Origin: a virus
Lineage: Duplodnaviria > Heunggongvirae > Uroviricota > Caudoviricetes
DNA: 64,000 nucleotides
Virus record (IMG/VR): IMGVR_UViG_3300020200_002792
Reading direction: 5' to 3' (one strand)
The notes beneath the pieces are model-generated. The model saw nothing but the letters and a program-made list of their open reading frames with translations, was not told the origin of the DNA and did no database searches. Shown here one piece after another: positions 39,401 to 57,240 of this stretch (position 1 is the first letter of the stretch; every line of letters begins with the position of its first letter). A program made the translations under genes and the position numbers.

Positions 39401-40516
39401 CTATTTCAGCCATTTCGGGATATAAGTTGAAGGACTTACCCAAATTAATTCTTCTTCTGCTCTAGATGCAGCAGTATAATTCCATCGCTTCATATCCCAC
39501 AAATCACAGTTTTGCTCATAAACCATTACCTTTGGGCATTGACTACCTTGAAATTTATGACACGTAATAGCATAAGCATAATCAAAAGGATGTGGTGTAT
39601 CTCTGCCAAATTCAAATTGATTCTTTTCTTTGCCCCACTGATTTCCATTAAATTTTACATCACAATAATACAAATCATCTGCAATAAAACTAATTTTTTT
39701 CTTTTTCAAATCAACTTTATCAACTATTCCTTGTAACCCATTAAACAAACCAAAAGGTTTACTATTTCTAAGGCATATAATTCTATCACCTTTTTCTACT
39801 AATTCCTTTTTACCTAAAAAATTTCTGACATTATTGTTTATTTCTACTCTGGTTCTATTAAAACCACAAATAATTTGATCAACTTCTGCTTGCATTTTAT
39901 CAGTGACAGATGAAGAAGCAACAAACTTAACCTTATCACCCCCTTTAAACTTAGTTGGTTTTCCTCCCTTACGGATATGATCTGCAAAAAAAGCAATTTC
40001 TCCAGCATTTCTATGAATAGTTTCCAATTTAAACATAGGATTAGCCATTACATTAATATCCTTGCCAATAGGCTCAAGCTGGCCATGATCACCTATAAAT
40101 ATAATTGGCAAAGAAAAAGAAAGAAGATCACCATAAAGGTCTTCACTCAACATACTAGATTCATCGACAAGAAAACCATCTATAAACAATTCATTTCTCT
40201 GTTTTAAAACAAATTCCAAGGTGCCTTCGTCATCTTTGAATGGTTTATAAATAAGACTATGAATTGTAGAAGAATCTAATCCCTTCTTCCTAAGAACTTG
40301 TGCGGCTTTTCCTGTATAAGCACATATTGCATAAGAAGGAAGAATCTGAGATAAAGTTGCAAGGCATGTGCTTTTGCCACACCCCGCTGCGCCGCCTAAA
40401 CTAATAATTTGTTCATTGCCTTTTTTTAAAGCATTAATTATTCCTGAAACAACTATTTTTTGTTCATGCGTCAATATTATCATGTTTAATGTATTTTTCG
40501 ACAAAAAGATTTTCAT
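39401..40516 (-). CDS. SF1B DNA helicase, Dda/RecD-like
   Basis: Walker A GGAAGCGKST; GDHGQLEPIG (motif III/IV region); YAITCHKFQGSQ (motif VI). Confidence 0.65.
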   Translation of the reverse strand: MKIFLSKNTLNMIILTHEQKIVVSGIINALKKGNEQIISLGGAAGCGKSTCLATLSQILPSYAICAYTGKAAQVLRKKGLDSSTIHSLIYKPFKDDEGTLEFVLKQRNELFIDGFLVDESSMLSEDLYGDLLSFSLPIIFIGDHGQLEPIGKDINVMANPMFKLETIHRNAGEIAFFADHIRKGGKPTKFKGGDKVKFVASSSVTDKMQAEVDQIICGFNRTRVEINNNVRNFLGKKELVEKGDRIICLRNSKPFGLFNGLQGIVDKVDLKKKKISFIADDLYYCDVKFNGNQWGKEKNQFEFGRDTPHPFDYAYAITCHKFQGSQCPKVMVYEQNCDLWDMKRWNYTAASRAEEELIWVSPSTYIPKWLK

Positions 40517-41306
40517 AACGTTCAGTAAATTTAATAACGCCTGACTTTCTTAACAGTGCTATCTCACGATCAGATAACAATGCATGATCTTTTAATTGAT
40601 ATATTAAATTATTTTCTTCACAATATTTACACGCTGCTTCTTTTTTAAGTTTAACAATTTTTGATTTATGAAGTTTAATTGGTTTGATTTCAATTAAATA
40701 TTTTTTGTTTACTAAAAAATCAGGACTATATGTTCTTTCCTTCCCATCCCAATTAACATATTTTATTTTTATCCTTTCAGCACTCTCCCAATTACTGTCG
40801 CTTTCATCCAAATAAATCATATAAGACAATTCTCTTAAACTTCTAAAGAAAATGTTTTTATACCACCCACTCCATCCATTGCCAGCCCCTTGAGGAGTTG
40901 GTTTACCATACATCGGATTATTTGATCCGCTTGAATTCTTACGTTGTTTTTCTTTAAAAGATTCCATTAATTCATTAGCTCTTATTTCTCCATATTTCTT
41001 AACCCACACTTCGTAAACAGTTTTGCCATACATCGCATTGTTTGACCCGCTAGAAAGTGCAGACATTTTTTTCTTATAAGAATCTGTTTGTGTAAAAGAA
41101 ACATCTCTATTCTTTGAAATCTTCTCCTTAGTTGCTTTTGAATGTTTTTTTCCGTAAAATGGATTTTTTTCACCTACCCAATTTAAATTTTTAACAGTAC
41201 AAGAACAACATAGACTATTTTTAGACAAAGCATACGAACAACCATATTTGCTTGCATACTCTAAAACTTTATTACATTGAGGGCAATTTCTTTTATATTG
41301 AACCAT
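40464..41306 (-). CDS. homing-endonuclease-like protein: N-terminal zinc ribbon, three NUMOD3 repeats, C-terminal PD-(D/E)xK nuclease domain
   Basis: CPQCNK...CCSC; NPFYGKKHSKATKEKIS, NAMYGKT, NPMYGKP (NUMOD3); YSPDFLV...YLIEIKP (D...E.K). Confidence 0.5.
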   Translation of the reverse strand: MVQYKRNCPQCNKVLEYASKYGCSYALSKNSLCCSCTVKNLNWVGEKNPFYGKKHSKATKEKISKNRDVSFTQTDSYKKKMSALSSGSNNAMYGKTVYEVWVKKYGEIRANELMESFKEKQRKNSSGSNNPMYGKPTPQGAGNGWSGWYKNIFFRSLRELSYMIYLDESDSNWESAERIKIKYVNWDGKERTYSPDFLVNKKYLIEIKPIKLHKSKIVKLKKEAACKYCEENNLIYQLKDHALLSDREIALLRKSGVIKFTERYENLFVEKYIKHDNIDA

Positions 41307-41334
41307 ACTTTAAAACAGTAAGGTTCCGACATAT

Positions 41335-44300
41335 TCAGCAAACAAGTTCATGTTCGCTCCTCAAAACACAAAGCCTAATATCATCTTCTTTACGTTTGGC
41401 TACCTTATGTCTTTCCCATTTAGGAGGACTTTCAAAAGTAAATCTCCTAAAGCCACCTGACGGCCCCTTTAACCTCATCCTTAACAACTTGCCTGGAATT
41501 ATTTCTTCTTTAAATCTTTCAAAGTCTTCTTTCCATACCTGAATCTGTTGCATTTCGCTATTTGCATCCTCTGCTTCGACTAACCAATATGTGTTGTTTT
41601 TCTTAGACATCATGCTCTTGACAGTCAAAATCCTTAATTCAACAGGATTATTTTCCTCTATACATACTTTAAAATCTTCAAATGTCATCCCACCACAATA
41701 GTCAGGACTCTTAGAAAGAGGATGATCCCATAAAAACCCATAATAAGCAAGTTGGGATGCTTCTAAAGATTCATAGTTTTCAAGAATCTTGTCAGCTATT
41801 TCATATTCTTCAGAAACAAAAGGTTTTTCTTCCAAACCAGTCTTAGAAGTTTCCAATCCTCTATAATAATTCTTTAAAACTGTCAAACCTTTCTTCAAAC
41901 TGTTCTTCATACAATAATCATAAATTTCCTTATTGTTATCTGGAAAATGCCATAACTCCTCTGGGACGATTGCCTCAATTTGTTCCTTCAATTCCTTTTG
42001 TCTTCTAATCCACCGCCTTCTTTTTTCATCAATTCTCTTCCTAGACTTCTTAACCCATTCAGCATACTTCAATAAATGGACAACATCTTCGCCAAAAATT
42101 CTAAGACCAATCAAAGGTTTAAGAACTGCCGTATCCGTACCAAATTTATTCAAAAAGTCATCAAAATCATTATAGGGTTGGTTATCTACTACCCTTTGGA
42201 CTACAGCATCTCCAATCCCAACAATATTAGAAATTCCATAATATATTTCTTCATCAACAATAGCTGCTTTAGCTTTAGATTTGCTAATATCGATTGGATT
42301 TACCTTGATATTATGCAATTCAGCTTCCATTTTGTATTCTTTGAGTTTGTCAACCTTATCTTCACAAACAAGACTAGATGTATAAAACTCAATTGGATAA
42401 TGAGCTTTAAAATAAAGAAGCCGCATAGCAATAACACAGTAACCGCAAGAATGACTATTATGGACTAGAATGCCATTAGCAATATAATTATGATTATTTT
42501 TAATACAAATATCATAAGTTTTATCTTTGCCGCATTTCTTAATTGATTTTACTTGCGTCCAAAAAATATTACTGTTAACTATTTTCAATAATTCAACATG
42601 CTTAAAAGTTTTAGCAATTATTTCAATAGTTTTTCTTAAAAAAGACTTCTTGTTTTTATCTTTCAAAAGAATTCTATGAGTCAGTCCACATTTATCTAAG
42701 CAATATCTGCCATACGACTTTCTAATTTCAAGGAGATAAGGCATTACAAGATTATATGGCAGCATATCACGTTCGTTACAGAAGATACTATATTTATAGA
42801 GAAAACTTTGATCACATTTTTTAGAACACATATATTTGCCTATACTTTTAGCAAATCTTTCCCTCCAATTATACCCTCCAACTTTAACTATATAACCTAT
42901 TTTTCTCATTCCCCGATAATTAAAAAATTTCTTATTTAACACAGAAACAAAACCTATTCTGAGCAAAAGTTCTTGCACTTGCTCTGCTAATTTCAAAGAA
43001 GATGTGGCATAGTAAGTGTTGCTTCTATCTACACATCCATCCCCTTCCCACATTCGTCCAAGCAATAACATGATTTGCTTAGAAGATAATTGAAAAACCC
43101 AATCAGGTAAAAATTTTTGAGGAGCTTTTTTCCAACACAAATCATTTTTCCTGGCCCATTGCAACAAATTAGTGGGAACATATTTTTTATAACTTCCAGA
43201 ATGGCCTGAATTAATACAGATTACCCACTTATCTTTGTAGTATTGCTTAGTAATATGAGACTTTCCAAATTTCTTAGCTGCCTTTACAAAATCATCAACA
43301 TAAAATTCATCTTGATTAAAAAAATACAAAGAACTAGGATGACAGGTATTACCTTCTGTAATTAAACCAGCTAAAACTATCAGTTCATGACTTTCAACTT
43401 TATGAGTGGCTACACAATCTCTTTTGGAAGGTAAAGCTACCCAATCACCAAGCTTCAAATCACTTAAAGGAATCCATCCTATATCAGTTAAAAATTTATG
43501 TTTTTCTGTACATTTAATAGCATGGTGAGATTTAGTGATTAATTCAAAAATTGATTTTTCACCATTATCAAAAACATCTTCTATAACAGATATTTCAAAT
43601 TTGCCATTCTTATCTAAAGAACCAGTCTTCATTCCCTTTTTAGCTTCACGGACCTTAAATGGTATTCCAAATTCATCGTATAAAACAGAATCGCCATGCA
43701 AGCACTTGTTGAAGCTGTACCCACTAAATGCCTCTATTTGAGTCCAAAATTCATTCATCTTTTCCAAACTATATCCCAATCGTTTCATGCCATTCTCAAT
43801 GAAACGATTTTTATAAGTCTGGAATAAATCAAGCCTCTTTTTGGATATAGCTTTTCTGACAATCTCACAATCTTTTAATGGCACATCACCTATTTGATTC
43901 AATATTCGCATGATTTGTTCTTGATAGATCATACAACCATAAGTTTCTCCCAAAATAGGTTTCAAAAGAGGATGAAGTCCATAAGCTTCACCCTTTTTTC
44001 TTTTTATATAAACTTCTGATTGTGCAATGGCCCCTGGACGATAAACGCTAAGATACGCCATCAAATCATTGAACCCATCAACACCGCCTTTTTTAACCAA
44101 TTGTCTCATGCCTTCGCTATCAAACTGAAATATGCCTCTTAAATCTGCTTTATTTGCCATTTCAATCGATTTAGGAGCATTCAAATAAGAAGTATCTGAC
44201 CAATCTTTCTTTCCAGGCTTTGCACAAATACTAGTTAAACCATGTCTATCTTTTACTAATTTTTTAGCTATAGCTATTTGTTTTAAATTAGACAAAGACA

Positions 44301-45048
44301 ACAAATCAAACTTAACCAAACCAACAGGCCCTAAATCCTGACCATGTAAACCTTCCACCCAAGCTGTACAAGGCAAATCATCTTTGTCTTTAACCAATGG
44401 GACAAAATTATTGATAGGTTTGCTGGATATAATTAATCCTCCAGCATGCTTACCCATACTATTGTTTCTATGCAAAAGCTTTTTAGCCGCTGTTGCTACT
44501 TCTGGATGATCCTCACAATACTTCTTCATTTCTGGAAATAACTCAACAGCTTTATCCCAGGTTAATGTTTTGCCTTCATCGTCCTTTAAACCCAATTTTT
44601 TAGTTACAGCCGTTACTTCATCTTTATCACAACTATACACTCTGGCCATATTTTGAAGTGCTGATTTAATGCCGAAAGTGTTATAGCTACCAATATTGGC
44701 TACAAATTCTTGGCCATAAAATTTTGGTGCCCAGATGTTCTTCAGATAATCTCGAACTTCTGGAAGAAAGTCGCAGTCCGAATCAGGCATGTCACCGTAA
44801 ACGTAGGTAGGCTCTTTGTCTATCTCTAAATCGTCTACTATGCCTAAAAGATATGGGATTAAGAGGTTTTTTTGATTATAAGGATATCTGATTTGCTTTT
44901 TGTGTAAATCTAGAAAATAATCATGCTTGTTTTGAGCATCTATTTCTTTTAATTCCAGGGCTAATCTCTTAGTATACTTCTCTTCTTTAAGCCCTTTACT
45001 TTCTAACCTAGCATTTAGAATTATAATCAATTCATCTTTAGCTTCCAT
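41335..45048 (-). CDS. dnaE: DNA polymerase III alpha (DnaE), C-terminal part; contains an intein. DnaE-homologous start is Met87 (44788..44790); aa 1-86 are a degenerate duplicate of an N-half segment
   Basis: MGKHAGGLIISS (AGKHAGGVVIAP), GLVKFDLLSLSNL (GLVKFDFLGLRTL), GIFQFDSEGMRQL...YRPGA (GVFQLESRGMKDL...FRPGP), FSGYSFNK[intein]SHSCGYCVIAMRLLYFKAHYPIEF ([32 protein letters not shown]). MPDSDCDF matches MPDFDVDF. Confidence 0.85.
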   Translation of the reverse strand: MEAKDELIIILNARLESKGLKEEKYTKRLALELKEIDAQNKHDYFLDLHKKQIRYPYNQKNLLIPYLLGIVDDLEIDKEPTYVYGDMPDSDCDFLPEVRDYLKNIWAPKFYGQEFVANIGSYNTFGIKSALQNMARVYSCDKDEVTAVTKKLGLKDDEGKTLTWDKAVELFPEMKKYCEDHPEVATAAKKLLHRNNSMGKHAGGLIISSKPINNFVPLVKDKDDLPCTAWVEGLHGQDLGPVGLVKFDLLSLSNLKQIAIAKKLVKDRHGLTSICAKPGKKDWSDTSYLNAPKSIEMANKADLRGIFQFDSEGMRQLVKKGGVDGFNDLMAYLSVYRPGAIAQSEVYIKRKKGEAYGLHPLLKPILGETYGCMIYQEQIMRILNQIGDVPLKDCEIVRKAISKKRLDLFQTYKNRFIENGMKRLGYSLEKMNEFWTQIEAFSGYSFNKCLHGDSVLYDEFGIPFKVREAKKGMKTGSLDKNGKFEISVIEDVFDNGEKSIFELITKSHHAIKCTEKHKFLTDIGWIPLSDLKLGDWVALPSKRDCVATHKVESHELIVLAGLITEGNTCHPSSLYFFNQDEFYVDDFVKAAKKFGKSHITKQYYKDKWVICINSGHSGSYKKYVPTNLLQWARKNDLCWKKAPQKFLPDWVFQLSSKQIMLLLGRMWEGDGCVDRSNTYYATSSLKLAEQVQELLLRIGFVSVLNKKFFNYRGMRKIGYIVKVGGYNWRERFAKSIGKYMCSKKCDQSFLYKYSIFCNERDMLPYNLVMPYLLEIRKSYGRYCLDKCGLTHRILLKDKNKKSFLRKTIEIIAKTFKHVELLKIVNSNIFWTQVKSIKKCGKDKTYDICIKNNHNYIANGILVHNSHSCGYCVIAMRLLYFKAHYPIEFYTSSLVCEDKVDKLKEYKMEAELHNIKVNPIDISKSKAKAAIVDEEIYYGISNIVGIGDAVVQRVVDNQPYNDFDDFLNKFGTDTAVLKPLIGLRIFGEDVVHLLKYAEWVKKSRKRIDEKRRRWIRRQKELKEQIEAIVPEELWHFPDNNKEIYDYCMKNSLKKGLTVLKNYYRGLETSKTGLEEKPFVSEEYEIADKILENYESLEASQLAYYGFLWDHPLSKSPDYCGGMTFEDFKVCIEENNPVELRILTVKSMMSKKNNTYWLVEAEDANSEMQQIQVWKEDFERFKEEIIPGKLLRMRLKGPSGGFRRFTFESPPKWERHKVAKRKEDDIRLCVLRSEHELVC
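42457..43704 (-). mobile_element. LAGLIDADG intein in DnaE at the GYGFNK/SHS site (416 aa)
   Basis: Starts CLHGDSVLYD, ends ILVHN followed by S. LAGLIDADG blocks ELIVLAGLITEGNT and LLLGRMWEGDGCV. Junction codons checked against the DNA. Confidence 0.8.
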
Positions 45049-45075
45049 CCATCATTTATATCGTTTACTTAATTT

Positions 45076-45279
45076 TCAGTCAATACTAAATAGACCCCCA
45101 ATAGAATTTGGATAAGCACTTAAATCATCCCCCTGATACTCGCTAACTCTCACAACAGACAACCATTTATTGCTTTTCATATATTTATTCGCTTCTTCCT
45201 CATCAATAAAAACCTTAGTTAAAAACCAAGGAGAAAAAAGCCCACCATAATCATCTTCATAAATTAAGTAGACTTTCAT
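45076..45279 (-). CDS. hypothetical small protein
   Basis: 67 aa, overlaps the upstream gene stop. Confidence 0.3.
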   Translation of the reverse strand: MKVYLIYEDDYGGLFSPWFLTKVFIDEEEANKYMKSNKWLSVVRVSEYQGDDLSAYPNSIGGLFSID

Positions 45280-47345
45280 TTGAATCCCATTGACCTTTCT
45301 ATATCCTGGTCAGAAGAAATGTATTCCTTCATTGAAGACAAAGTAAAAATAGCATCTTCGTATTCATCACCAAGGATTATAACGGCAACAAACAATTCTT
45401 TCAAATGTGCAATACTAAATCCATTCGTATCTTCAATCCATTTAGAAAGAGGAACTTTTAATTCTTTTACTTTATCACCCATCAAATATTCAAAATACAA
45501 TTTTCTACTTTCTTCATTTGGATGACCTATCTTGAACCTCTTATCAAACCTGCTTGGCCTATTAATGACTCTTGGACCTAATTCTTCTGGATAATTAGTA
45601 GTTGCCAAGAATACGCACTTGTGGACACATTCAACACCATCCAATATATTCAAAACACCAGATTCATCACCATAATTATGCATTATCGCATCTAAATCTT
45701 CCATCAAAACTACAACAGGTGTTTCTGGCTGAATTGTTCTGAATATTCTCATGCCTTCTATGAAAATATGAGGATGACAAAATTTAACTACTATGCCGCC
45801 TCTTTCAACCACATCTTTCATAATAAGTTGAATAGAACTCGATTTACCACTATTATGATGAACAATATAATCAGAAGTTAAATATAAATGATCACCCGAA
45901 ATTGTAAACCCATAAAACTTCCCTTTGCCAAGAGATTCAATTTTTCTAATGCCTGTTCTTAACGGGTCTTTATTAGGCATTCCAACTAGTGCTTTTTTTC
46001 TTGCAAGTTTTACAGGAATTCTAGAAATATCACCAAATATGTTAAGCCGCCAATAATCTCCTTCAAAGTCTATTTCTTTAATTCCTTTTTTTACTTTTTT
46101 AATTGTCACACCAAAACCAAGACTTCTAGCCAATTCAACTATCTGCCAAGCCAACCTTTCTCTTTTCTGAATAATTTCAAAATAATCTTTATAACCTTTT
46201 TTCTTAAATTTAGCACTTTTCCTCCAGGTAGCAACACAATAACCTCCATCAGTATCAACTAACCCTGCCAATAAACCTAGCCTTTGCTGCACTGAAGAAT
46301 ACATATAATTATCTGGGATGTGCTTATCCTCCAATACATTTAAATTTCTTAATTCATTTAAAACATAATTGCCGCCTTTTGATCCATCGCCAACTATATT
46401 CAAAGCCCAACAAATAGAATCTGTTTTACGCCTTTCTGTTAAAGATAGTCCAAAACAAAATGCATATTTTCTCAAATATTCTTTTATTTCCTGGTCAGCA
46501 GAATTAACCTCAGTTTTACCTTCAGAACCATCACCCAGCCAAACTCCTAAAAAATAAGGTTCCAATGGCAATTCTTGTTTTTTTTCAAAATTCACTCCAA
46601 TTCTGTACAACTTAAACGACCATTGAGAGCATTTGGTCAAATTCATATAATCATTTAATTTAATATTCATTACAGGAGGAAATCTCAATTCAACGCTACT
46701 AGTTCTTCTTAAACTTAAAACATGATTGCCATTTACTACAAAAGGTTCTCCCTTATTAGGATATACTCTGTACATTTCATCGATACCATGCCTTAATTCT
46801 AATACCCTACGTGGCTTAGAATCAGGCCCCATAAGTAAATCACCAACTTCTACGTCTTCTACTTTCTTAGTTTTCCCATCAAACATTCTAATCAATGTGC
46901 CTTTTCCATGACACCCAGCAGGGCCGTATAATATCACGCCCCTTTTGTATGCTAAACCAAATTCTTTAAATACCGCTTCCTTATCCCAGAATTTTTTAAT
47001 CTCATCAACAACCTTTTCTGAATTAGTTTGAGGAAATCTAATAAGACCTTCAGTTTTTACTGGAACTTTTTCAAAATATATACCAACTCCAGGAGCTTGA
47101 AGAATGTCATAAACTCCAGGAATAAGCTTATCTATTGTGTGACTAGCAGGTATGAAAGTTCTTTTGTCAGAAGTAGTCCATTGAACTAAATTGCCAAGCT
47201 TAACTTGTTGTTCTTCTTTTTCTTCTGACATATCACTACCACGACAAGAAGTAGCATATGCTTTATTGTAAGGTTTATATGCTGGTTCTTTTTCTGCCGC
47301 ACTTTTTAATAACTCAATTAACTCACTATCTTCTTCTCTTGACAT
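45276..47345 (-). CDS. classic-clade AAA ATPase with an intein in the Walker A loop
   Basis: Extein reads VILYGPAG[intein]SGKSSSIQ (Walker A), then VVVLMEDLD (Walker B) and second region of homology ATTNYPEELGPRVINRPSRFDKRF. Confidence 0.7.
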   Translation of the reverse strand: MSREEDSELIELLKSAAEKEPAYKPYNKAYATSCRGSDMSEEKEEQQVKLGNLVQWTTSDKRTFIPASHTIDKLIPGVYDILQAPGVGIYFEKVPVKTEGLIRFPQTNSEKVVDEIKKFWDKEAVFKEFGLAYKRGVILYGPAGCHGKGTLIRMFDGKTKKVEDVEVGDLLMGPDSKPRRVLELRHGIDEMYRVYPNKGEPFVVNGNHVLSLRRTSSVELRFPPVMNIKLNDYMNLTKCSQWSFKLYRIGVNFEKKQELPLEPYFLGVWLGDGSEGKTEVNSADQEIKEYLRKYAFCFGLSLTERRKTDSICWALNIVGDGSKGGNYVLNELRNLNVLEDKHIPDNYMYSSVQQRLGLLAGLVDTDGGYCVATWRKSAKFKKKGYKDYFEIIQKRERLAWQIVELARSLGFGVTIKKVKKGIKEIDFEGDYWRLNIFGDISRIPVKLARKKALVGMPNKDPLRTGIRKIESLGKGKFYGFTISGDHLYLTSDYIVHHNSGKSSSIQLIMKDVVERGGIVVKFCHPHIFIEGMRIFRTIQPETPVVVLMEDLDAIMHNYGDESGVLNILDGVECVHKCVFLATTNYPEELGPRVINRPSRFDKRFKIGHPNEESRKLYFEYLMGDKVKELKVPLSKWIEDTNGFSIAHLKELFVAVIILGDEYEDAIFTLSSMKEYISSDQDIERSMGFK
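45852..46913 (-). mobile_element. LAGLIDADG intein in the P-loop of the AAA ATPase (354 aa; coordinates from codon arithmetic)
   Basis: Starts CHGKGTLIRMFDG, ends YIVHHN followed by SGKS. LAGLIDADG blocks YFLGVWLGDGSEG and LGLLAGLVDTDGGY. Confidence 0.7.
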
Positions 47346-47442
47346 TAAAAAACTCCATCCGATTATAGATGGAGTATAAGAAATAAAAATAATTATTACA
47401 AGGCCAAAAAATAACCCCAGCTTTTTATGGCTAGGGTTATTG

Positions 47443-48036
47443 CTAAGGGAAAGTCAAATAACTTGAAACTGCTTTACAAAACTCAACCAAATTATTCTCA
47501 GGCCATTCAAATTTGGCAAGTTGTGCTATTAAAGCTACAAACTGAATATTGCCTTTTATATAACCTTTACCACTATCTATCCTATCTAAACTTGCCCTGT
47601 CGGGAGTGCGTGGTAATTTTGAACCAATAGTAGGCAAATTTTTAAGTTGCCATCCAGTATACGGGCAAACACCTTTTTGTTTTTCCCACTGTTCTTTAAG
47701 ATCAATTAATGTAACGCCACATTCTTTATTATTTCTTCTTATAATGTTTCGATAATGCCAACGAAAAGGCGAATATTCATCTGGTGTCCGTACTTTTAAA
47801 TTTTCAGGTCTACCACCACCTAAATGTTTATAATTATCCTTTCCTGCACATCTAAGAGAACAATAAATTTTCCTGCCTAGCTTTTCATTTCTTGATAGCT
47901 CACCAACTTCTCTTAAAAATGTTTTACCACAAATAAAACACTGAACTTCTTTTTTCATAAAAACCTCCATTATAACATAGTAAGTTATAATGGAGGTTGT
48001 CGAAATTTTATTGGAGGCGTTGGGGATTGAACCCAA
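47443..48036 (-). CDS. HNH_3-type homing endonuclease, paralog of 32654..33244; true start probably an internal Met near 47955
   Basis: CFICGK...CSLRCAG...GVCPYTG...ASLDRIDSGKGYIKGNIQFV...N. The N-terminal 25 codons of the ORF overlap the tmRNA 3' end. Confidence 0.55.
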   Translation of the reverse strand: MGSIPNASNKISTTSIITYYVIMEVFMKKEVQCFICGKTFLREVGELSRNEKLGRKIYCSLRCAGKDNYKHLGGGRPENLKVRTPDEYSPFRWHYRNIIRRNNKECGVTLIDLKEQWEKQKGVCPYTGWQLKNLPTIGSKLPRTPDRASLDRIDSGKGYIKGNIQFVALIAQLAKFEWPENNLVEFCKAVSSYLTFP

Positions 48037-48362
48037 GTGAACGTGTAATGATGATTAAGCCTCTACATGCTTATCTCCTTGTTCATTACAGTTTTAGAAC
48101 TACAAAGAGCAAAAGTCCACAAACTGTTACGACATATTTTCTCATCTAAAAGCAAGTCGTCCGCTAATAGACCAGCTAGATTTTACATCAGGCTTTTGGA
48201 CGCATCCAGCATTAGCTTCCTGAGCCTGTTGGCCGACTTAAGCAGCCAAAGAGTAAGAAACTTCCTCAATTAAGAGTAATCGCATTTTATACTGGCCTTG
48301 CGATTAACCAGTGCATGCCACATTAACCACGCAACTTACCGTTTCGAAACCAATTCGCCCCC
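48012..48362 (-). ncRNA. ssrA: tmRNA (ssrA), ~351 nt; ends approximate
   Basis: RC reads 5' GGGGGCGAAUUGGUUUCGAAACGG...GUGGCAUGCACUGG (cf. E. coli GGGGCUGAUUCUGGAUUCGACGGG...GUGCAUGCCGAGG) and ends ...CUUGGGUUCAAUCCCCAACGCCUCCA (T-arm plus 7-bp acceptor pairing with the 5' end, discriminator A). Internal tag frame ...GAG GAA GUU UCU UAC UCU UUG GCU GCU UAA = EEVSYSLAA-stop (E. coli ends YALAA). Confidence 0.65.
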
Positions 48363-48435
48363 GATTTGTCAAAGACCTACTAATCTATTTATTCTATAGT
48401 AAAAAGTTTTAAAATCAAGCCCCCTATATAGAAAT

Positions 48436-49221
48436 ATGATAAAATTCTCTGAATATTTGGACAACCAAGGCAAAATGGAAAAAACAAAAATCTCTGTGGA
48501 TGGAGATACAGGCCCAAGTCCAACAAAAGCACCAGAACCAGCCGCAAAAAAGGGCAAAAACTGGAAATGCGAAACCACTTTGGCTGAAAAACCAAAGGAT
48601 TACGCAACCAGTACACAACCAGACAAACAAATGGTTATGAAAGACAAGGACGCCAAGCCTGGTTTGGGCACTGAAGGAGATAAAAAACTAATTTATGAAC
48701 CAGAAACTCCTACAAAATCAACCGCTGATGGCATGGTAAATATCAAACCTACTTGGCCAAAAGCTACTGAGAAAACTACAGCTACAGCAGAAAGTTTTAT
48801 CAATGCCACCAAAGATATGTCTACAGAAGAGTTTGTAGCTTATTTGTCTGAAACTAAAGAAAAAGAAGAACACCCATTAAAGACAATCATTAATGCCGTT
48901 CGCTTAATGAAAGACAATGATAAGCTTACTGAAACCTTTGTAAGAGAAACACGCAGACAAGGCTCTTTGGATATTCTAGTAAATGAAATGTTCAAATTAG
49001 AAGAATCATACAAAGGTTTAGCTACATTACTTTCAGATATCAGCCATCAGAATAGACTAAACGATGCTATTAAAGAAAGCACTGAAGCACCTGCATCCGA
49101 AACAGAAGGCGAAGATAAGAAAGCAGTCGGTAAAAGGAAAGCCAAATCCATAAAAGGACAACCAATGGATATGGGAAACGATGTTGTAAGTTCTAAAGCT
49201 TCTATGTCGAACAAGAAGTAG
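48436..49221 (+). CDS. low-complexity K/E/T/P-rich protein with T4-CTS-like N-terminus (candidate internal/ejected protein)
   Basis: Starts MIKFSEYLDNQGKME. 261 aa, largely predicted disordered. Confidence 0.4.
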   Translation: MIKFSEYLDNQGKMEKTKISVDGDTGPSPTKAPEPAAKKGKNWKCETTLAEKPKDYATSTQPDKQMVMKDKDAKPGLGTEGDKKLIYEPETPTKSTADGMVNIKPTWPKATEKTTATAESFINATKDMSTEEFVAYLSETKEKEEHPLKTIINAVRLMKDNDKLTETFVRETRRQGSLDILVNEMFKLEESYKGLATLLSDISHQNRLNDAIKESTEAPASETEGEDKKAVGKRKAKSIKGQPMDMGNDVVSSKASMSNKK

Positions 49222-49236
49222 TTTTTCTACTTTCAA

Positions 49237-49377
49237 CTAACCAAAGCTGTTTATATTTGGTTCATCAGGTGGATAATAGTATTCATTACAGTTTTTATAT
49301 AAACAGATATACATTTTACACCTTGCATCCCAAGAAACGCCTCTTTGTTTGCATGATGGACAGTTATACATATACAT
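49237..49377 (-). CDS. small Cys-rich protein (46 aa), questionable
   Basis: Own translation MYMYNCPSCKQRGVSWDARCKMYICLYKNCNEYYYPPDEPNINSFG, preceded by gagg. Below the ORF-track cut-off. Confidence 0.2.
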   Translation of the reverse strand: MYMYNCPSCKQRGVSWDARCKMYICLYKNCNEYYYPPDEPNINSFG

Positions 49378-49381
49378 AGTT

Positions 49382-50041
49382 TTACCTCTCATACTTGTAA
49401 TTATCCACAAAATCTTTCAAGTGCTTCTCGTAGTCTGTAAGTTCTCCAAGAGCAAACCGTGGTGCTAATAAATCGCAATAATTTGCCAGTGTTTTGCAAG
49501 CGTGTTCATAACTGTTATAAATACCTGGATATTCTGATCTTTCATTAATATGCTTATTTCGGGCATTATCCAACCAATCATTTATGGGAACAAGCATTTT
49601 TTGCCAGCTTCCATTCCTGTGCATTGACCAGCCTGGAGATTCGACGTTCCAATGGAAGTAATCTTCACCTTCGTTACAAAAAAGATCGAAACCATCAGCG
49701 AGTGCTTGTAGTAATTCGGCATCCGTGAGATACTTGCGAGGGTGCTTCTTGTCCCAGGCTTCTTGACGACGATCATCCCATATCTTCTCATACTTCTTGT
49801 ACAAATTTTTCTCATCATCCCAATAACCATAGATAGTCCACTGCCCTGGCCACAAATGACGTGCTGATTCTTTAATCTCAACGTGCCATATCTCTTTCAA
49901 CCACTGCAAGTATGCTGGGTCTTTCCAACGTGATTCATCTTTGCCCCAAGGGTTGTTGTTGTTTTCCATGCTATTATTACAGTTAAATTGGGTCCAAGTT
50001 CTCAAATTCCAAACTAATACTTTTACCGCCTCTAGCTTCAC
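49382..50041 (-). CDS. W-rich hypothetical protein
   Basis: 219 aa with many W/K/D residues. Overlaps the dnaE N-half stop by 59 nt. Confidence 0.3.
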   Translation of the reverse strand: MKLEAVKVLVWNLRTWTQFNCNNSMENNNNPWGKDESRWKDPAYLQWLKEIWHVEIKESARHLWPGQWTIYGYWDDEKNLYKKYEKIWDDRRQEAWDKKHPRKYLTDAELLQALADGFDLFCNEGEDYFHWNVESPGWSMHRNGSWQKMLVPINDWLDNARNKHINERSEYPGIYNSYEHACKTLANYCDLLAPRFALGELTDYEKHLKDFVDNYKYER

Positions 50042-52547
50042 TTAAAAATCTGCTAAATAACAAACCATGTTCAACAGGGTCTACATCAGTAATACCAAGT
50101 ACATAACAAATTAATGAGCCTAAGTTAGAGTTGTGAGCAATAAATGAAGATGTTAAATAATTACTTTCATTCTCTACTTCAATGTCATAAACTTTGCCGC
50201 CAGAAGAAACTTTTGTTATTTCTCTCACTTGAACTAAATAACCATTGTCTTTAATTCTATAGCGATAAGATTTTTGATAATTATTTTCGGACAATCCTTT
50301 TATATGAGGAATATTAATGCTATATTCAACGTTTCTAGTATCACTTCTTTTGTCATATCTATTATAAAGATTAATAGAAGCAGGAATATCTATAGACAAA
50401 CAAATATGTCTTACCTCATGAGCCATTCTTACTGAACTTGTAGTAAATTTTATTTTATTTTTGTCTAATCCACCATCAGTAAGAAAAAATCCTTTTAAAA
50501 ATGCCAGTTTTAATTTCTTAGGCAAATTAAACACAACATCTGGAACGTGTTTGGTCTGCGCAGTTAGTTTATAATCACAAAACAATTCTTTCATCAATTT
50601 TTTAAGAAGAAGGTTAGTCGAATGAAACTGGACAAGTTTTTTAGTTTTTGAATAATATCTTCTCATGCAAAGCCCGAATTCATCTTCGAACATATGTCTA
50701 CAGAACTCAAAAACATCCGTGTTTTCGCTATGAGTACATAAAGAAACTCTATTAGGAGCATTTGTTATAAAAAATCCATTGCCACAAAACATGCCAATAA
50801 ACGTAGCAAAATCTTCATTCCATTGAATAAATCTGTTTATTTTATATTTCTTATAATTATTCGTATAACTTATCTTATTTTCTGTTATATCTAAATTTTC
50901 TCCATATTTAGCCAAATCAATAATTTCTGGCACTCCTTCTTTTATATCAAATCTAGGAATAAACAACCAATCTCCAACTTCAATTTGATCGACTGGAATC
51001 CAGTTCATATCTCCAGTAGGTTCCAGAGTTAATTTTACTTTTTTCTTATTCTCCTCTGAATAATGATCGAATTTATGATCTATTCTTTTCTTCTCACACA
51101 ATATTTTATGGTCAGAAGTAAAAGATTCTCCTTGATTGAATCCATAATATGTCTTTATATTAATCAACTCTTCATCACAAGGATATTCGAATAAATTCAA
51201 TATTTTCCTTTCCTTGCCGCTTGCGCTGTAAACCAAATCACCAAGTTTGGCTTCTCCTAATTTTTTCACTTTCCCATTAGGCATGAAAAGCAAATTATTA
51301 TAATGGCCACAACCTCTGCCCGGCCCATAAGCATCACTTCCGTCACCCCATCCTAGTATCTCAGGACAAACTCTTATAGCCTCATCCATAATCTGTTTTT
51401 GAATCAAAAAATAAGAAGAAAATTCCTTATGGCATATCAAATTATATTCTTCTTTTAATCTATTTAAATATTCTCTAGTTGTTGGCAAGCCTCTTTCTTT
51501 AAATCCTTGTATCATCAAATCTTGCAATTTATCGTCATCATTATCAAGTTTAGGCAACTTCATTGATGTATCAAGCTGGACATTACCTGCTTTTCTGGCT
51601 ATTTCAACAGTATTCATCTTAGCTTGTTTGAAAATGTCATAATCTATCTCTTGATAATCTTTAGCCCATTTTTCATTTAATTCTTCTTCAGTCTTCATCC
51701 ATAAATTACTGTCTTGCAGTTCAAAGAAATCTTTATAATTATCATCCGTCATTTTTTTCTGAATTTCTTTTATGGTATTTTTTGTTTGCACCATCAACAT
51801 TAATCTTTGAAATTGGCTATCGCCTGGTGAAAGATAATGGCAGTCATTAGTTAAAATTATTTTCAATCCATACTTGTCAGCAGCTTTAATAATGAATAAG
51901 TCATAAGGCTTCTGTTTTACAAAATCCAAAAGCATTATTTCCAGATAAAAATACTCCTTACCAAACATAGAAATGTACTTTTCTATCATTTGGTAGCCAG
52001 CTTCTTCTCCACCATTCTCAAATGCCTGTCCTATTTCGGAAGCATAACAACAGGAAGTGAATATAATGCCTTCTTTGTACTTTAAAAGCTGTTCATGATT
52101 GACTCTAGGTTTATAATAAAAACCTTTGTTCCAAGCTAAAGAAGAAAGCGTAACTAAATTGCTATATCCTGTTAAATTATAAGCCAAAGCTAATAAGTGA
52201 AAACCCCTTCTTCGCATCAACTTAAGTTCTTTGGGATTTAATGAATCTAGATATTTCTGCAATTCATTTTCAGAAGAGTATTCGATTTGCAAAGGATTAA
52301 CATAAAACTCAATTCCGAAGATGGGTTTTAAAGATTTATTTTTATACGAATCATCTTTCTTATTGGATGCTTTACAGTATTTAATTTGATTTGGAGGAGC
52401 CGCTAACATGCCATGATCAGTTACACATAAATAATCTCCATGTCCTTTCCAATATGCTGCATATTCTGAAATTTCCCCAAAACCATCTAGTAAAGAGTAT
52501 GAACTATGAACATGAAGCGGCTCATATCCAACTATTTCATTTTTCAT
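49983..52547 (-). CDS. dnaE: DNA polymerase III alpha (DnaE), N-terminal part (PHP domain onward); contains an intein and ends 11 aa after the position equivalent to E. coli ...NPERVS
   Basis: PLHVHSSYSLLDG and CVTDHGML (PHP motifs), KPIFGIEFYV, ILTNDCHYLSPGDSQFQRL (VATNDVRFIDSSDFDAHEIRV), SYFLIQKQIMDEA, YGPGRG[intein]SNLGSLICYVLGITDVDPVEHGLLFSRFL ([35 protein letters not shown]). Confidence 0.85.
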   Translation of the reverse strand: MKNEIVGYEPLHVHSSYSLLDGFGEISEYAAYWKGHGDYLCVTDHGMLAAPPNQIKYCKASNKKDDSYKNKSLKPIFGIEFYVNPLQIEYSSENELQKYLDSLNPKELKLMRRRGFHLLALAYNLTGYSNLVTLSSLAWNKGFYYKPRVNHEQLLKYKEGIIFTSCCYASEIGQAFENGGEEAGYQMIEKYISMFGKEYFYLEIMLLDFVKQKPYDLFIIKAADKYGLKIILTNDCHYLSPGDSQFQRLMLMVQTKNTIKEIQKKMTDDNYKDFFELQDSNLWMKTEEELNEKWAKDYQEIDYDIFKQAKMNTVEIARKAGNVQLDTSMKLPKLDNDDDKLQDLMIQGFKERGLPTTREYLNRLKEEYNLICHKEFSSYFLIQKQIMDEAIRVCPEILGWGDGSDAYGPGRGCGHYNNLLFMPNGKVKKLGEAKLGDLVYSASGKERKILNLFEYPCDEELINIKTYYGFNQGESFTSDHKILCEKKRIDHKFDHYSEENKKKVKLTLEPTGDMNWIPVDQIEVGDWLFIPRFDIKEGVPEIIDLAKYGENLDITENKISYTNNYKKYKINRFIQWNEDFATFIGMFCGNGFFITNAPNRVSLCTHSENTDVFEFCRHMFEDEFGLCMRRYYSKTKKLVQFHSTNLLLKKLMKELFCDYKLTAQTKHVPDVVFNLPKKLKLAFLKGFFLTDGGLDKNKIKFTTSSVRMAHEVRHICLSIDIPASINLYNRYDKRSDTRNVEYSINIPHIKGLSENNYQKSYRYRIKDNGYLVQVREITKVSSGGKVYDIEVENESNYLTSSFIAHNSNLGSLICYVLGITDVDPVEHGLLFSRFLSEARGGKSISLEFENLDPI
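50130..51311 (-). mobile_element. LAGLIDADG intein in DnaE at the GPGRG/S site (394 aa)
   Basis: Starts CGHYNNLLFMPNG, ends FIAHN followed by SNLGS. LAGLIDADG blocks FIGMFCGNGFFI and LAFLKGFFLTDGGLD. Junction codons checked against the DNA. Confidence 0.8.
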
Positions 52548-53527
52548 TTCTTACTTATAAACCTTATGCCCTTTTTAGTCAACCATTCCTCAAAATCTGC
52601 CAAACAATATTTTCCGCTTTTACTGTTATTTTCAAAAGCTTCTAAAGGTCGTAAATTTTCTAAACAATTAATGAGCGATAAATCATATAATCCATAATCT
52701 ACAAAAGCTTTTATAGGCCAAATGTGATCAATATGCCATTTATCATTCTTAATTTTCTCATAATTTGGGTGATTCAAAATGTGTTCTTGCAATTGTTTAT
52801 AATCATATCCCAACAACGTCGCTGTCCTTTTATTCTTGACTCTTCCAGTGGCATTCAAAGACATTCTAACTAATTTATAACACCTTTGACGGAAAATAAG
52901 CTCATTTGCTAATGCCTTTCTGTCACTTCGCCATTCATAATGATTTTTTCCTGATCTGCTTTTAATAGAACATTGTAAACACATACCACTTTTTCTAAAG
53001 TTACCCCAAGTAACAACAGATTTCTCTCCACACTTACAAATATAATCTAATTTTTTATTAGCTTTCTCATATCGGCTCAGAAGAATACAACCTTTTTCTA
53101 CAAATTTTTGGGCAACATAATCATGACTTAAAGTTTGTTTTTCAGAAGATTTTTTATTACCACATTTTTTGCATCTATTGCCTGATTTAAACCTCCAAAA
53201 AGTAATTTTAGATTCTCTCCCACATTTACAAACATATCTTAAAGGAATTCTAGCATTTACATATTCTGTTTCTAACAATACACATTTATTTTCCTTAAAA
53301 TATTGCCTAACATAATCAATACTTAATCTAAATCTTTCAGACTGCTTCCTAGCATGACATTTAGAACAAAAAATTGATTTTCTAAAATTAATAAAACTTT
53401 TAACAAAAACATTACCACAAACACAAACATATTCTAGTGGCAACTTTATATCTTGGCATTCTTTAGACAAAAGAGTACATTGTTTTGATTCAAAAAAGTT
53501 TTTAACATCTTCATAAGTATATTTCAT
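52544..53527 (-). CDS. zinc-ribbon-repeat HNH endonuclease
   Basis: Four tandem ~45-aa modules (Y.C.CG......F...G..C..C). Then HIDHIWP...N...N HNH core. Confidence 0.55.
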   Translation of the reverse strand: MKYTYEDVKNFFESKQCTLLSKECQDIKLPLEYVCVCGNVFVKSFINFRKSIFCSKCHARKQSERFRLSIDYVRQYFKENKCVLLETEYVNARIPLRYVCKCGRESKITFWRFKSGNRCKKCGNKKSSEKQTLSHDYVAQKFVEKGCILLSRYEKANKKLDYICKCGEKSVVTWGNFRKSGMCLQCSIKSRSGKNHYEWRSDRKALANELIFRQRCYKLVRMSLNATGRVKNKRTATLLGYDYKQLQEHILNHPNYEKIKNDKWHIDHIWPIKAFVDYGLYDLSLINCLENLRPLEAFENNSKSGKYCLADFEEWLTKKGIRFISKK

Positions 53528-53547
53528 ACTTTATCATAGTAATTCCC

Positions 53548-54261
53548 CTAATCAATATCCGGTAACATGAAGCTGTGCATGGTTCCATAAATCACACCCA
53601 TTCTAGGGAAGAAACAATCATGCCCGGCAGAAGTTTCAAGAATAGAATTTTTTTTCAATGCTTCGCTTACCCACCAAGGACTTGAACGATTGCCAATGAA
53701 CAGTTTGCATCCAGCTATAATCTGAGCTAGCTCCATATAATCTTGTATTGGATAAAAAGGGATATGACCAGCTATTGGGCAAAAAATATCATGTTCATAT
53801 TTAAACCCAACAAAAACTGCATTTTTACCATATTTTTCAACAATTGTACGCCAAGGAAAATGACTTGTTGTATACCTTATACTTCTATGCATTATAACTT
53901 GGGCAACATACTTTGGTTCTGGAACTTTAATCCAAGGTTCTTCTAGAGGATGTTCTGGCATGTCATAACAATTTGTATGCATTTCCGCCAAATTCTTACC
54001 TTGTCCAAAGCATCTTCTCCATTTATCTAGATTTTCTCCCACAACATGTTGCTTCCATTCTACACTTTTAATATATGATTGATATTCAAGAAGTGGTTTC
54101 AAAACTGCAACTCTATCAGGGGTCATTCTTCCTTGTGGACCGGAAGGAAATAAAACTAAATGCCCACCGCCTAATGCTTTAATTAAAGTAAGGCCAGCAA
54201 TTAAATCGCCTATGTCACCAGTATGGCTAAAATACTTTATTACTTTTTGAACATGTAACAC
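53548..54261 (-). CDS. short GT9-like (heptosyltransferase-fold) protein, third paralog
   Basis: HTGDIGDLIAGLTLIKALG... and ELAQIIAGCKLFIGNRSSPWWVSEAL resemble the GT9 N- and C-terminal signatures. Only 237 aa. Confidence 0.35.
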   Translation of the reverse strand: MLHVQKVIKYFSHTGDIGDLIAGLTLIKALGGGHLVLFPSGPQGRMTPDRVAVLKPLLEYQSYIKSVEWKQHVVGENLDKWRRCFGQGKNLAEMHTNCYDMPEHPLEEPWIKVPEPKYVAQVIMHRSIRYTTSHFPWRTIVEKYGKNAVFVGFKYEHDIFCPIAGHIPFYPIQDYMELAQIIAGCKLFIGNRSSPWWVSEALKKNSILETSAGHDCFFPRMGVIYGTMHSFMLPDID

Positions 54262-54277
54262 AAAAAGTATTTATTAA

Positions 54278-54490
54278 TTAATCAGCCTTTTTAGTAACAC
54301 TCTTTTTCCACTCTTCAAACTCATTTTGAATAGTCATTGCTGCATTTTCCAGTTCTTTCAAATCAGACTGGAATTTATCATAAACTACCTTAAATTCAGC
54401 CTTTAAACGCTTTTTTTGTTCAGCAATTTCAACTATCTTCTTGGAAAATTCAACAAAGCTATCACTTAATAGAAATTCAACTGGTTCCAT
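54278..54490 (-). CDS. hypothetical small coiled-coil protein
   Basis: Same-strand overlapping array. Confidence 0.3.
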   Translation of the reverse strand: MEPVEFLLSDSFVEFSKKIVEIAEQKKRLKAEFKVVYDKFQSDLKELENAAMTIQNEFEEWKKSVTKKAD

Positions 54491-54698
54491 TTTTACCCCT
54501 TATTAACAGAGTAAATTTATTTCCATTTTTATCGTTAAATGTAATATTAGATTCGCCCTCAAGAGTTATTGTTACCTTGTTATCCATATTTAATTGAGAA
54601 TAAAAAACAATAGGTTCATCATTACCAAATTGAAAGCAAAATTCCAGCTTTTTAGATTTATTATTTAACCAAAAGTTATCAAAAAACATAGGCAACAT
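54477..54698 (-). CDS. hypothetical small protein
   Basis: Same-strand overlapping array. Confidence 0.3.
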   Translation of the reverse strand: MLPMFFDNFWLNNKSKKLEFCFQFGNDEPIVFYSQLNMDNKVTITLEGESNITFNDKNGNKFTLLIRGKNGTS

Positions 54699-54891
54699 TG
54701 TCCTTTATTGTAATTTCTTTAGCTTTACCAGTCATCACAAAATATGGTTGACTCTTTCTTATCCTGCCATGAGTAAACACATTGCAGAAAATATTATCTA
54801 CCAAAAAACATTTGTTGTGATAATGAACACTAATTACTGGTTTGCCTGCTTTTTTACTAGCTGGCTTATTATAATGGTAAAAGAAGGTCAT
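54679..54891 (-). CDS. hypothetical small protein
   Basis: Same-strand overlapping array. Confidence 0.3.
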   Translation of the reverse strand: MTFFYHYNKPASKKAGKPVISVHYHNKCFLVDNIFCNVFTHGRIRKSQPYFVMTGKAKEITIKDNVAYVF

Positions 54892-55580
54892 GAAAAAAGA
54901 TACTCCGGTGGTTCAATCATTTCTACTATGTTAGCCTTATCCGCAAATAATTGTAAGGGCAAGTAGCACAATATCTTTTTAAGCCCCGAATCATAACTTT
55001 TCTTGCCTGAATCTCGCTTAAACCTCAATTCTGCACCTGGGCATTCTTCGGACTTGAAACACCTATTTTTGTCATGTAATTCAGAATCACTCATCAACCA
55101 TTCTTTCAAAACCTTTACATAAGCTGGTTTCATCAATTCTGGATATGGAATCATCATTAGTTTTTTCCATGAATTATCCAAAACATTATAATAAATGCCA
55201 TCAAACTTAAAATCCCTTGCTATAAAATCAGCTTCAATTTTTGAATTTCTTAGAATTAAATTATTTACTTCATCTTTTCCTGGATATGGTTGCAACAAAG
55301 CACACCCTATGTCCGTTCCACTGTTTGGCTGTCTGAATTTATTTTGGCAATATAAATAATTACCATCTACCAAAGTCTTTGCATCTCTTTTGTTATTTTT
55401 ATCTTCTTTTTCTGAACATTCTTCCCAATTTTTGATATTTTGTCCTTTATAGGGTATTCCGTGAAAATTAATGGTATCAAGAATCCAATTTTCTACTAGT
55501 TTTGATTTTTTAAGTCGGACTGGAAATGGTAATTTGTGCAAATCCTCATACGAATTCATTAATGATGTTAATTTATCCAT
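54888..55580 (-). CDS. hypothetical protein
   Basis: No recognised motif. Confidence 0.3.
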   Translation of the reverse strand: MDKLTSLMNSYEDLHKLPFPVRLKKSKLVENWILDTINFHGIPYKGQNIKNWEECSEKEDKNNKRDAKTLVDGNYLYCQNKFRQPNSGTDIGCALLQPYPGKDEVNNLILRNSKIEADFIARDFKFDGIYYNVLDNSWKKLMMIPYPELMKPAYVKVLKEWLMSDSELHDKNRCFKSEECPGAELRFKRDSGKKSYDSGLKKILCYLPLQLFADKANIVEMIEPPEYLFS

Positions 55581-57232: not shown

Positions 57233-57240
57233 GTTAATCC

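Follow-up and report, generated by a model that had tools for sequence, protein, structure and literature searches.

A DNA polymerase III alpha gene split within its catalytic palm, with duplicated coding ends, in a clade of huge phages

The Split dnaE Locus

The window analysed here, a whole stretch of 64,000 nucleotides from a virus of the Caudoviricetes (IMG/VR record IMGVR_UViG_3300020200_002792), carries dnaE, the gene for the alpha subunit of DNA polymerase III (Pol III), as two open reading frames (ORFs) that lie 4.9 kb apart, both on the minus strand (Table 1). The initial annotation had read them as two separate parts of one gene, and the ORFs themselves, their Pfam matches and the alignment to E. 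coli Pol III alpha all agree with this. The upstream ORF, which we call the N-half, carries the PHP domain (PF02811, E 1.3e-34) and the N-terminal palm as far as the nucleotide-binding RGS loop with its helix; the downstream ORF, the C-half, matches PF17657 (E 1.6e-35) and PF14579 (E 2.8e-10; fingers/HhH), and OB-fold matches come from its C-terminal beta strands 717–789. After intein removal, the C-half runs through a leader, the catalytic strand, the remaining palm, the thumb, the fingers, HhH and OB. The two meet almost without loss: on the Pfam profile DNA_pol3_alpha, the N-half stops at position 98 and the C-half picks up at position 100 (its residue 86), and against E. coli Pol III alpha, the N-half reaches residue 396 and the C-half starts at residue 397. 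All the palm motifs of a DnaE are found, but they are shared out between the two ORFs, with the RGS loop at residues 411–413 of the N-half extein and the catalytic strand aspartates D89, D91 and D93, together with the invariant D248 (the third catalytic Asp), in the C-half. The window dnaE is thus a member of the DnaE family in all respects except that it is not a single chain. The mature proteins, first estimated at about 50 and 85 kDa, come to 53.2 and 95.0 kDa.

The split is not a product of sequence assembly. Over window positions 39512..55048, which take in the entire split locus, a contig from another sample (ENA ERZ27247963) is 100% identical without gaps, and this independent assembly rules out a chimera; the identical C-half protein (P0121) is found on six contigs from different samples. 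A reading of the halves as pseudogenes was also considered and rejected. After the N-half, the sequence continues TAA CTG TAA TAA TAG, giving four in-frame stops. A megablast search of the locus against GenBank phages gave no match, and promoter and terminator scans of the locus did no better than on shuffled sequence.

Table 1. Features of the split dnaE locus (window positions)
Feature	Position	Strand	Remarks
dnaE N-half ORF	49983..52547	-	854 aa with intein; extein 460 aa, 53.2 kDa; PHP and N-terminal palm
N-half palm module, pre-intein part	51312..51527	-	makes up the RGS-loop module with 50031..50129
N-half LAGLIDADG intein	50130..51311	-	394 aa, aa 413–806; site GPGRG|S
N-half palm module, post-intein part	50031..50129	-	R445 = E. 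coli R396; most conserved part of the N-half
N-half tail GGKSISLEFENLDPI	49986..50030	-	degenerate copy of the catalytic beta strand; KSISLEF against PDIDIDF
Two unassigned ORFs 3' of the N-half	49237..50041	-	first listed as 219 aa, likely start ATG 49969; no homologue in L001
57-aa ORF, second of these two	49237..49410	-	two CxxC pairs, resembles a zinc ribbon; no homologue in LR756511
Opposite-strand gene	48436..49221	+	261 aa; N terminus M..F.EYL..KGK
Transfer-messenger RNA (tmRNA)	48009..48362	-	same strand as dnaE; Rfam RF00023
HNH/endonuclease VII-like ORF	47443..48036	-	PHROG 3322, E 1e-15; between tmRNA and AAA gene
AAA ATPase	45276..47345	-	extein 335 aa plus 354-aa P-loop intein
AAA ATPase intein	45852..46913	-	354 aa, aa 145–498; P-loop site GPAG|SGKS
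67-aa ORF	45076..45279	-	immediately upstream of the C-half
dnaE C-half ORF	41335..45048	-	1237 aa with intein; extein 821 aa, 95.0 kDa
C-half leader	44791..45048	-	aa 1–86; second palm-module copy, diverged yet conserved; without RGS
True catalytic strand MPDSDCDF	44767..44790	-	D89/D91/D93 = E. coli D401/D403/D405
C-half LAGLIDADG intein	42457..43704	-	416 aa, aa 449–864; site GYSFNK|SHS
HNH-like ORF upstream of the N-half	52544..53527	-	4-nt overlap with the N-half start
NUMOD3 + TnsA-like-N ORF downstream of the C-half	40464..41306	-	lies 29 nt beyond the C-half stop

The Duplicated Overlap

The two proteins overlap by about 95 residues, corresponding roughly to E. coli 313–406. A second copy of the N-half segment at the start of the C-half had been noticed before, and the copy proves to be real and larger than was claimed. 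A profile of C-half leaders (n = 108) aligns in hhalign with a profile of N-half ends (n = 111) at E 8.6e-6, pairing RL..E..EI, YFL and LL.PYLLGIV of the leader with their counterparts in the canonical module and leaving a gap of about 20 residues in the leader opposite N-half ...GWGDGSEAVGPGRGS. In tblastn searches, C-half residues 13–86 or 63–86 match the same stretch of contiguous phage DnaEs as the N-half end. The motifs of the leader are RL..E..EI, YFLDL and NxxNLL.PYLLGIV; the GPGRGSG motif is missing from it, as the initial annotation had said, and the place is taken by NxxNLL.

At the opposite end of this overlap, the N-half had been described as closing with an addition of 11 residues. 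The tail is indeed present, but it is a degenerate copy of the catalytic strand rather than an addition: phmmer runs the N-half end through the catalytic strand of M. tuberculosis DnaE1 ('rgg.ksislefe' against 'rtsmpdididfd'), and the tail is conserved across the clade. Where the true strand has its three aspartates, the tail has Ser, Ser and Glu. The last N-half residue ahead of the tail is R445, the equivalent of E. coli R396; in the C-half, G85 aligns at E. coli V397, D89 at D401 and D91 at D403. The losses in the two copies are complementary, the N-half keeping RGS with the DxD gone and the C-half keeping DxDxD with NxxNLL in the place of RGS.

Both copies are conserved. In 93 C-half leaders, E32, N58, N61 and G85 are invariant and R28, L29, E35, Y44, F45, L62, L63, L67 and L68 nearly so, and the mean pairwise identity among C-halves is 0.52 in the leader, compared with 0.63 in the catalytic core and 0.38 in the C-terminal region. 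In the N-half, the module has the highest mean pairwise identity of the whole protein (0.71), and RGS is invariant, also where the adjoining GPG varies. Judged by these sequences, both copies of the overlap are under purifying selection, and the label "degenerate" that the leader had been given does not survive its conservation across the clade. The same comparison disposes of the suggestion that Met87 sits at a conserved start position: most relatives have F, Y or W there, so Met87 is no hidden start codon and the leader is translated. The clade consensus at the catalytic strand is FPDIDVDY, from which the window departs with MPDSDCDF.

Distribution of the Split

The split had first appeared to be an oddity of this one genome, a view that the relatives contradict. 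The 120 best homologues of the N-half extein, at 57–71% identity, are nearly all 437–489 aa long, and the 120 best homologues of the C-half, at 820–935 aa, are without the PHP domain; the same split, leader and tail recur in nearly all of them. The two halves share contigs and do so in the same order, and the contigs bearing them reach 669 kb. An alignment-based scan of IMG/VR gave 80 loci, fetched with 10 kb, of which 4 are contiguous and the rest (about 75 of 80) split, with the C-half on the same strand 1.0 to >9.6 kb downstream or beyond the fetched 10 kb; a single-protein scan of IMG/VR gave no match. The PHROGs, too, include half-length families: N-half families 7513 and 13169, and C-half families 11165, 12219 and 21652. 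As far as sequence comparison tells, the split is an old, clade-wide state of huge phages, common to well over a hundred relatives.

The break site recurs still farther away. Among the 150 best representatives of clusters at 50% identity, 26 are N-half only and end 11–39 aa past xFxRFL; at least a dozen of these 26 are only 32–43% identical to the window, and their tails are strand-like (MKLEV, LCLEI, MRLDL). As these distant N-half-only DnaEs stop at the same site, the break there would be either very old, with several re-fusions, or recurrent. Proteins of this distant kind are P0261, P0262, P0266, P0275, P0289, P0304, P0329, P0339, P0345, P0348, P0350, P0352 and P0377, and some of those at 32–43% identity group with contiguous DnaEs in the tree.

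A cultured phage with the same dnaE split was searched for and none was found. Pbunavirus, Wifcevirus and Pectobacterium phage PcaP2EGY were considered as split cases, and their DnaE is contiguous. In three actinophages, Gordonia phage Sienna (MT771345), Rhodococcus phage Grayson (MH153812) and Microbacterium phage Poultress (PQ114744), the DnaE-like gene is annotated as two coding sequences, with the breaks inside the N-terminal region; in Sienna, a hypothetical gene lies between the two. Bacillus phage Edson was rejected, the break in GAKEdson_2310 falling just after the catalytic strand, at another position. This 474-aa "hypothetical protein" (L091 5911..7335) is the N-part of a DnaE that reads through MPDVDTD, beyond which its sequence is unrelated; an intron or a frameshift could account for this interruption.

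Contiguous Relatives

A contiguous dnaE is found in LR756511 from GenBank (locus L001) and in the four IMG/VR loci. For more than 25 kb, the window and LR756511 have the same gene order except for the position of the N-half, which in the window stands upstream of the block of opposite-strand gene, tmRNA and AAA gene, whereas LR756511 has this block ahead of an intact dnaE. Neighbour joining groups the contiguous genes in a single clade, which is the sister of the window subgroup and is nested within the split clade; with distant outgroups, the nesting is recovered in 100/100 bootstraps for the N region and in 98/100 for the C region. When nearer outgroups are used, the main clade has a sister group that is itself N-half only, and midpoint rooting and equal outgroup distances agree with the nesting. 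The initial annotation had named a contiguous dnaE in a relative as a sign of chimeric assembly; such genes do exist, in LR756511 and the four loci, but as they are nested within the split clade, they do not speak for a chimera.

The fused genes keep the N-half module, have neither tail nor leader, and show the canonical spacing of 38 from RGS to PD; a remnant of the leader was looked for in the contiguous loci and none was found. We consider it quite likely, from the tree and the form of the junction, that the contiguous dnaE is a secondary re-fusion of the split genes. If the N-half tail and the homologous strand of the C-half crossed over in register, the fused junction would come out as it is seen.

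Genes in the Gap

Read in the direction of dnaE, the gap holds two unassigned ORFs, the opposite-strand gene, the tmRNA, the HNH/endonuclease VII-like ORF, the AAA ATPase and a 67-aa ORF. The intein-bearing ATPase, the HNH-like gene and the tmRNA had all been seen at first reading, and ORF, Pfam, PHROG and Rfam evidence upholds them; the PHROG matches in the HNH region are to endonuclease, endonuclease VII and HNH families. The tmRNA scores 82.5 bits against an Rfam threshold of 47 (E 4e-31, model positions 1–374), though it went undetected by ARAGORN. It is also present, at 100–146 bits, in L001 (4531..4885), L003, L005, L028 (13825..14183), L053 (11887..12230) and L054 (12763..13117), and in the minimal loci, it ends 52–72 nt ahead of the C-half start.

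The opposite-strand gene has a homologue in the gap of every split locus inspected, and in the contiguous relatives, it sits just upstream of dnaE. Across loci (for example, L001 3551..4462, L053 11315..11812 and L048 11699..13120), its product is 165–473 aa long with a low-complexity middle, and it matched no Pfam or PHROG family. In L053, the gap shrinks to 1040 nt and holds only this gene and the tmRNA, the latter ending 52 nt before the C-half. The conserved core of the gap, by this comparison of loci, is the opposite-strand gene with the tmRNA, to which the window subgroup adds the AAA ATPase.

The remaining content is of another kind. The HNH-like ORF is missing at this position in L001, L003 and L005 and also from the gap of L053; the three inteins of the window are missing from the close relatives L001, L003 and L005, where the AAA gene occurs without an intein; and the two endonuclease-like genes that flank dnaE have no homologue in the LR756511 locus. 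Because these elements are missing in relatives, the selfish elements are best seen as secondary, and on the available sequences, the HNH gene and the three inteins joined the locus later and are specific to its lineage; the flanking endonucleases likewise came later. The gap, as its comparative sequence evidence indicates, is neither an intron nor a recent selfish insertion. This runs counter to the selfish-element cassette by which the initial annotation had accounted for the gap, the invariant content of which includes no endonuclease.

Within the 3' extein of the AAA gene, three contigs from different Logan runs all stop at exactly window position 45518, and one JGI contig stops at 45450. 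These ends may mark strain variation, such as intein-bearing and intein-free AAA alleles that differ in flanking co-conversion tracts.

Inteins and Flanking Genes

Each dnaE half carries a LAGLIDADG intein of its own, as had been proposed, and Pfam matches and the reading of the splice motifs both bear this out. The signatures of the three inteins are CGHYNN...TSDH...IAHN|S, CLHGDS...TEKH...LVHN|S and CHGKGT...NGNH...VHHN|S; all have Cys1, the block-B His (TSDH being block B of the N-half intein), the terminal HN and the +1 Ser, and Intein_splicing, LAGLIDADG_3 and Hom_end_hint all match across the three. Inteins at the same site as that of the N-half are found in the relatives P0022 and P0063.

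The gene order in relatives from ENA and JGI is PrkA, DUF444, SpoVR, small ORFs, DnaE-N, the opposite-strand gene or genes, tmRNA, AAA, small ORFs, DnaE-C and a helicase. The wider surroundings in the window are typical of huge phages (33216..34204 and 55619..58458, both on the minus strand), with homologues of ribosomal protein S21 and peptide deformylase, recognised by identity with the annotation of L094, and the DUF444–SpoVR pair; PrkA lies further upstream in relatives.

Structure Models and the Break

Each extein was modelled with AlphaFold2 as a separate chain. The N-half model has a predicted local distance difference test score (pLDDT) of 85 and matches Pol III alpha in Foldseek at E 5e-24, covering the PHP and palm of 3e0d and 5fku; the C-half model has a pLDDT of 88.8 and matches 7pu7 and 2hpi at E 6e-31. 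The leader is modelled at pLDDT 91–97. Two segments fall below 50, the N-half tail (445–460) and the catalytic strand of the C-half (84–93), and in these models, they may fit elements that need a partner chain.

No sign of joining is seen at the break. Pfam gives no Hint or intein match at the N-half tail or the C-half leader, and Rfam gives no intron within 14 kb of the locus. The marks of a split intein (an N-terminal nucleophile, a terminal HN and a +1 Cys, Ser or Thr) are missing there, the leader ending in G[DE] followed by [FYWM]PD. With no intron, no Hint domain, a series of in-frame stops and an opposite-strand gene separating the halves, the chains must act either together or separately.

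Discussion

It is likely that the window encodes an old two-gene DnaE, with chains of 53 and 95 kDa that assemble noncovalently around a composite active site. Under this model, each precursor would lose one cis-splicing LAGLIDADG intein, and the mature 53- and 95-kDa chains would stay separate and associate, the first contributing RGS and the second the carboxylates of the active site. The overlap would go back to a partial duplication, after which the two copies lost complementary motifs, a loss that would make both genes indispensable. The leader and the tail would most likely provide the docking surface between the chains, and a heterodimer with a composite active site and with these two as docking elements is a reasonably likely arrangement, given the models, the invariant RGS of the N-half and the fused relatives, which retained the N-module without the leader. 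Since these relatives have kept the N-module at canonical spacing, it would be able to pair with the C-half strand. The two-subunit Pol III alpha that the initial annotation had envisaged is supported, on comparative grounds, as the likely product, now from two ORFs that share a duplicated palm segment.

Several points weigh against this account and the history that goes with it. The low pLDDT at the catalytic strand is weak evidence for a missing partner, given that MPDSDCDF of the window departs from the consensus; the leader, in which the hydrophobic core residues of the canonical module are preserved, could fill the canonical site, leaving the N-half an accessory; the trees are by neighbour joining only; and a re-fusion would have had to move the N-half past the intervening genes. 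The second of these points can be made into an explanation of its own, in which the C-half is self-sufficient, the leader fills the palm with an Asn-rich loop for RGS, and the N-half serves as an accessory PHP subunit, acting as a proofreading exonuclease or as a pyrophosphatase and retaining a vestigial palm fragment only for docking. The core of the module retained in the leader (RL..E..I, YFL, LL.PYLLGI), the invariant N58 and N61 and the confident modelling all speak for it, and contiguous DnaEs with a reduced PHP domain exist in Pbunavirus and Wifcevirus phages. It sits poorly with the N-module, RGS included, being the best-conserved part of the N-half, with the lack of a confident model for the catalytic strand beside the leader, and with the fused relatives, which retained the N-module and lost the leader; we regard it as unlikely. 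Far less plausible still is a joining of the halves, whether by an intron or ribosomal bypass or by an atypical split intein whose short N-fragment would lie in the tail and whose long C-fragment would lie in the leader. The idea has precedent, as split inteins divide the dnaE of cyanobacteria and three phage-like DnaE loci in ocean metagenomes (Dassa et al. 2009, PMC2677866), but the leader is homologous to the polymerase palm and not to Hint domains, its junction has the consensus G[DE][FY]PD, and the missing intron signal, the stops and the opposite-strand gene in the 4.9-kb gap leave it scarcely any room.

As to the origin of the two genes, the initial annotation had favoured splitting driven by a homing endonuclease, as in Aeh1 nrdA/mobE or T4 gp39/gp60, and selfish elements do abound at the locus: the three inteins, the HNH-like ORF within the gap and two flanking genes, one HNH-like on the upstream side and one NUMOD3/TnsA-like on the downstream side. 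For a recent fracture in this genome, one would nevertheless have to set aside that the split, the leader and the tail are common to more than 100 divergent relatives, that the HNH gene and inteins are missing in relatives (L001, L003 and L005) and that the minimal gap of L053 contains only a nonendonuclease gene and the tmRNA; we consider such a fracture very improbable. The other question is that of direction. If the root of the tree were misplaced, the contiguous dnaE of LR756511-like phages could be ancestral, the split having arisen once and no re-fusion being needed. Both the spacing and the motif of the contiguous junction are perfectly canonical, every cellular DnaE is contiguous, and a re-fusion would have had to carry the N-half past the hypothetical gene, the tmRNA and the AAA gene. 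Set against this are the bootstrap support for the nested position of the contiguous clade, the nearer outgroups that are split at the same site, and the midpoint rooting and outgroup distances, so that an ancestral contiguous gene seems improbable to us.

Beyond the two-chain enzyme itself, one may draw a larger picture that we put forward only tentatively and with considerable doubt. In it, an obligate two-chain polymerase would be found in the huge-phage clade and in several distant lineages, with duplicated palm submodules exchanged across the chains: the N-half's RGS module would pair with the DxD strand of the C-half, so that the active site spans the chain boundary, and the N-half's dead strand would pair with the C-half's RGS-less module in an inactive pseudo-palm that acts as a clasp. 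The arrangement would have arisen by partial duplication and complementary loss, the tmRNA and the gap gene would have been kept nested in the polymerase gene ever since, and the state would have been reversed at least once by in-register re-fusion.

Replicative polymerases in pieces are already known, and the present case is less singular than was first held, being the norm in a phage clade, while its architecture makes it more interesting. What we describe is apparently an ancient and conserved two-chain Pol III alpha, split through the catalytic centre, that has so far gone undescribed. If the proposed assembly is true, the palm of Pol III alpha can form from two chains, which bears on the formation of the fold and on the engineering of split polymerases, and the overlap with its complementary loss of RGS and DxD is a natural case of subfunctionalisation within one active site. 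At this locus, gene fission and subsequent re-fusion can also be put to the test, and it draws attention to a conserved pair of tmRNA and gap gene nested in the replicase locus of huge phages. There are consequences for annotation as well: the halves now carry labels such as "DNA polymerase III alpha," given to two genes, or hypothetical protein, and automated pipelines may call them pseudogenes.

Comparison with Known Systems

A replicative polymerase encoded as two chains has a parallel in the split family-B replicases, such as PolB of Methanothermobacter, gp43A/B of T4-like phages and, with a split intein, PolB of Nanoarchaeum. These belong to another family and fold, and to our knowledge, no duplicated overlap across the catalytic strand has been reported for them. 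Aeh1 nrdA-a/nrdA-b with mobE and T4 gp39/gp60 resemble the window in that two polypeptides are presumed to reassemble noncovalently. In those systems, the breaks are clean, the causative endonuclease is still there, and the state is limited to one or a few phages; the split in the window differs in having no conserved endonuclease in the gap, ends that overlap by about 95 residues with complementary loss, and an ancient and widespread occurrence.

For Pol III alpha, a close likeness is the split dnaE-n/dnaE-c of Synechocystis and related cyanobacteria, where the alpha subunit also comes from two genes and the state is fixed across a clade. The cyanobacterial break lies in the fingers, near ..AEY|CFNK. 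In the window, by contrast, it lies in the palm, at E. coli 396/397, with no split intein, an overlap of about 95 residues, and both genes on one strand within a few kilobases. The cyanobacterial genes are far apart, and their split-intein fragments trans-splice the products into one chain (PMC2677866). The other precedent is that of the "fractured genes," three DnaE loci in ocean metagenomes among them, which are mainly from phages and in which, besides the split inteins, a homing endonuclease gene separates the parts (Dassa et al. 2009, PMC2677866). They share with the window an enzyme in pieces, a largely phage origin, DnaE as one of the loci, and the placement of the parts, which in our loci lie on the same strand at the distances given above. 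They differ in that the window has no split-intein halves, has a nonendonuclease gene and a tmRNA in the gap, and has duplicated coding ends; a free-standing endonuclease, the HNH ORF, is present in the window but missing from the gaps of L003, L005 and L053, which have the same split. In the literature, we found split DnaE only as the cyanobacterial split-intein gene and as fractured metagenomic loci, and no other C-family polymerase with its break within the catalytic palm and no intein to join the parts. Beside these stand the contiguous DnaEs of E. coli, Thermus aquaticus and M. tuberculosis (2hnh, 2hpi and 7pu7), with which the window shares its domains, their order and the catalytic motifs and whose folds match both halves; unlike the window, each of these structures is a single chain with a single copy of the RGS module.

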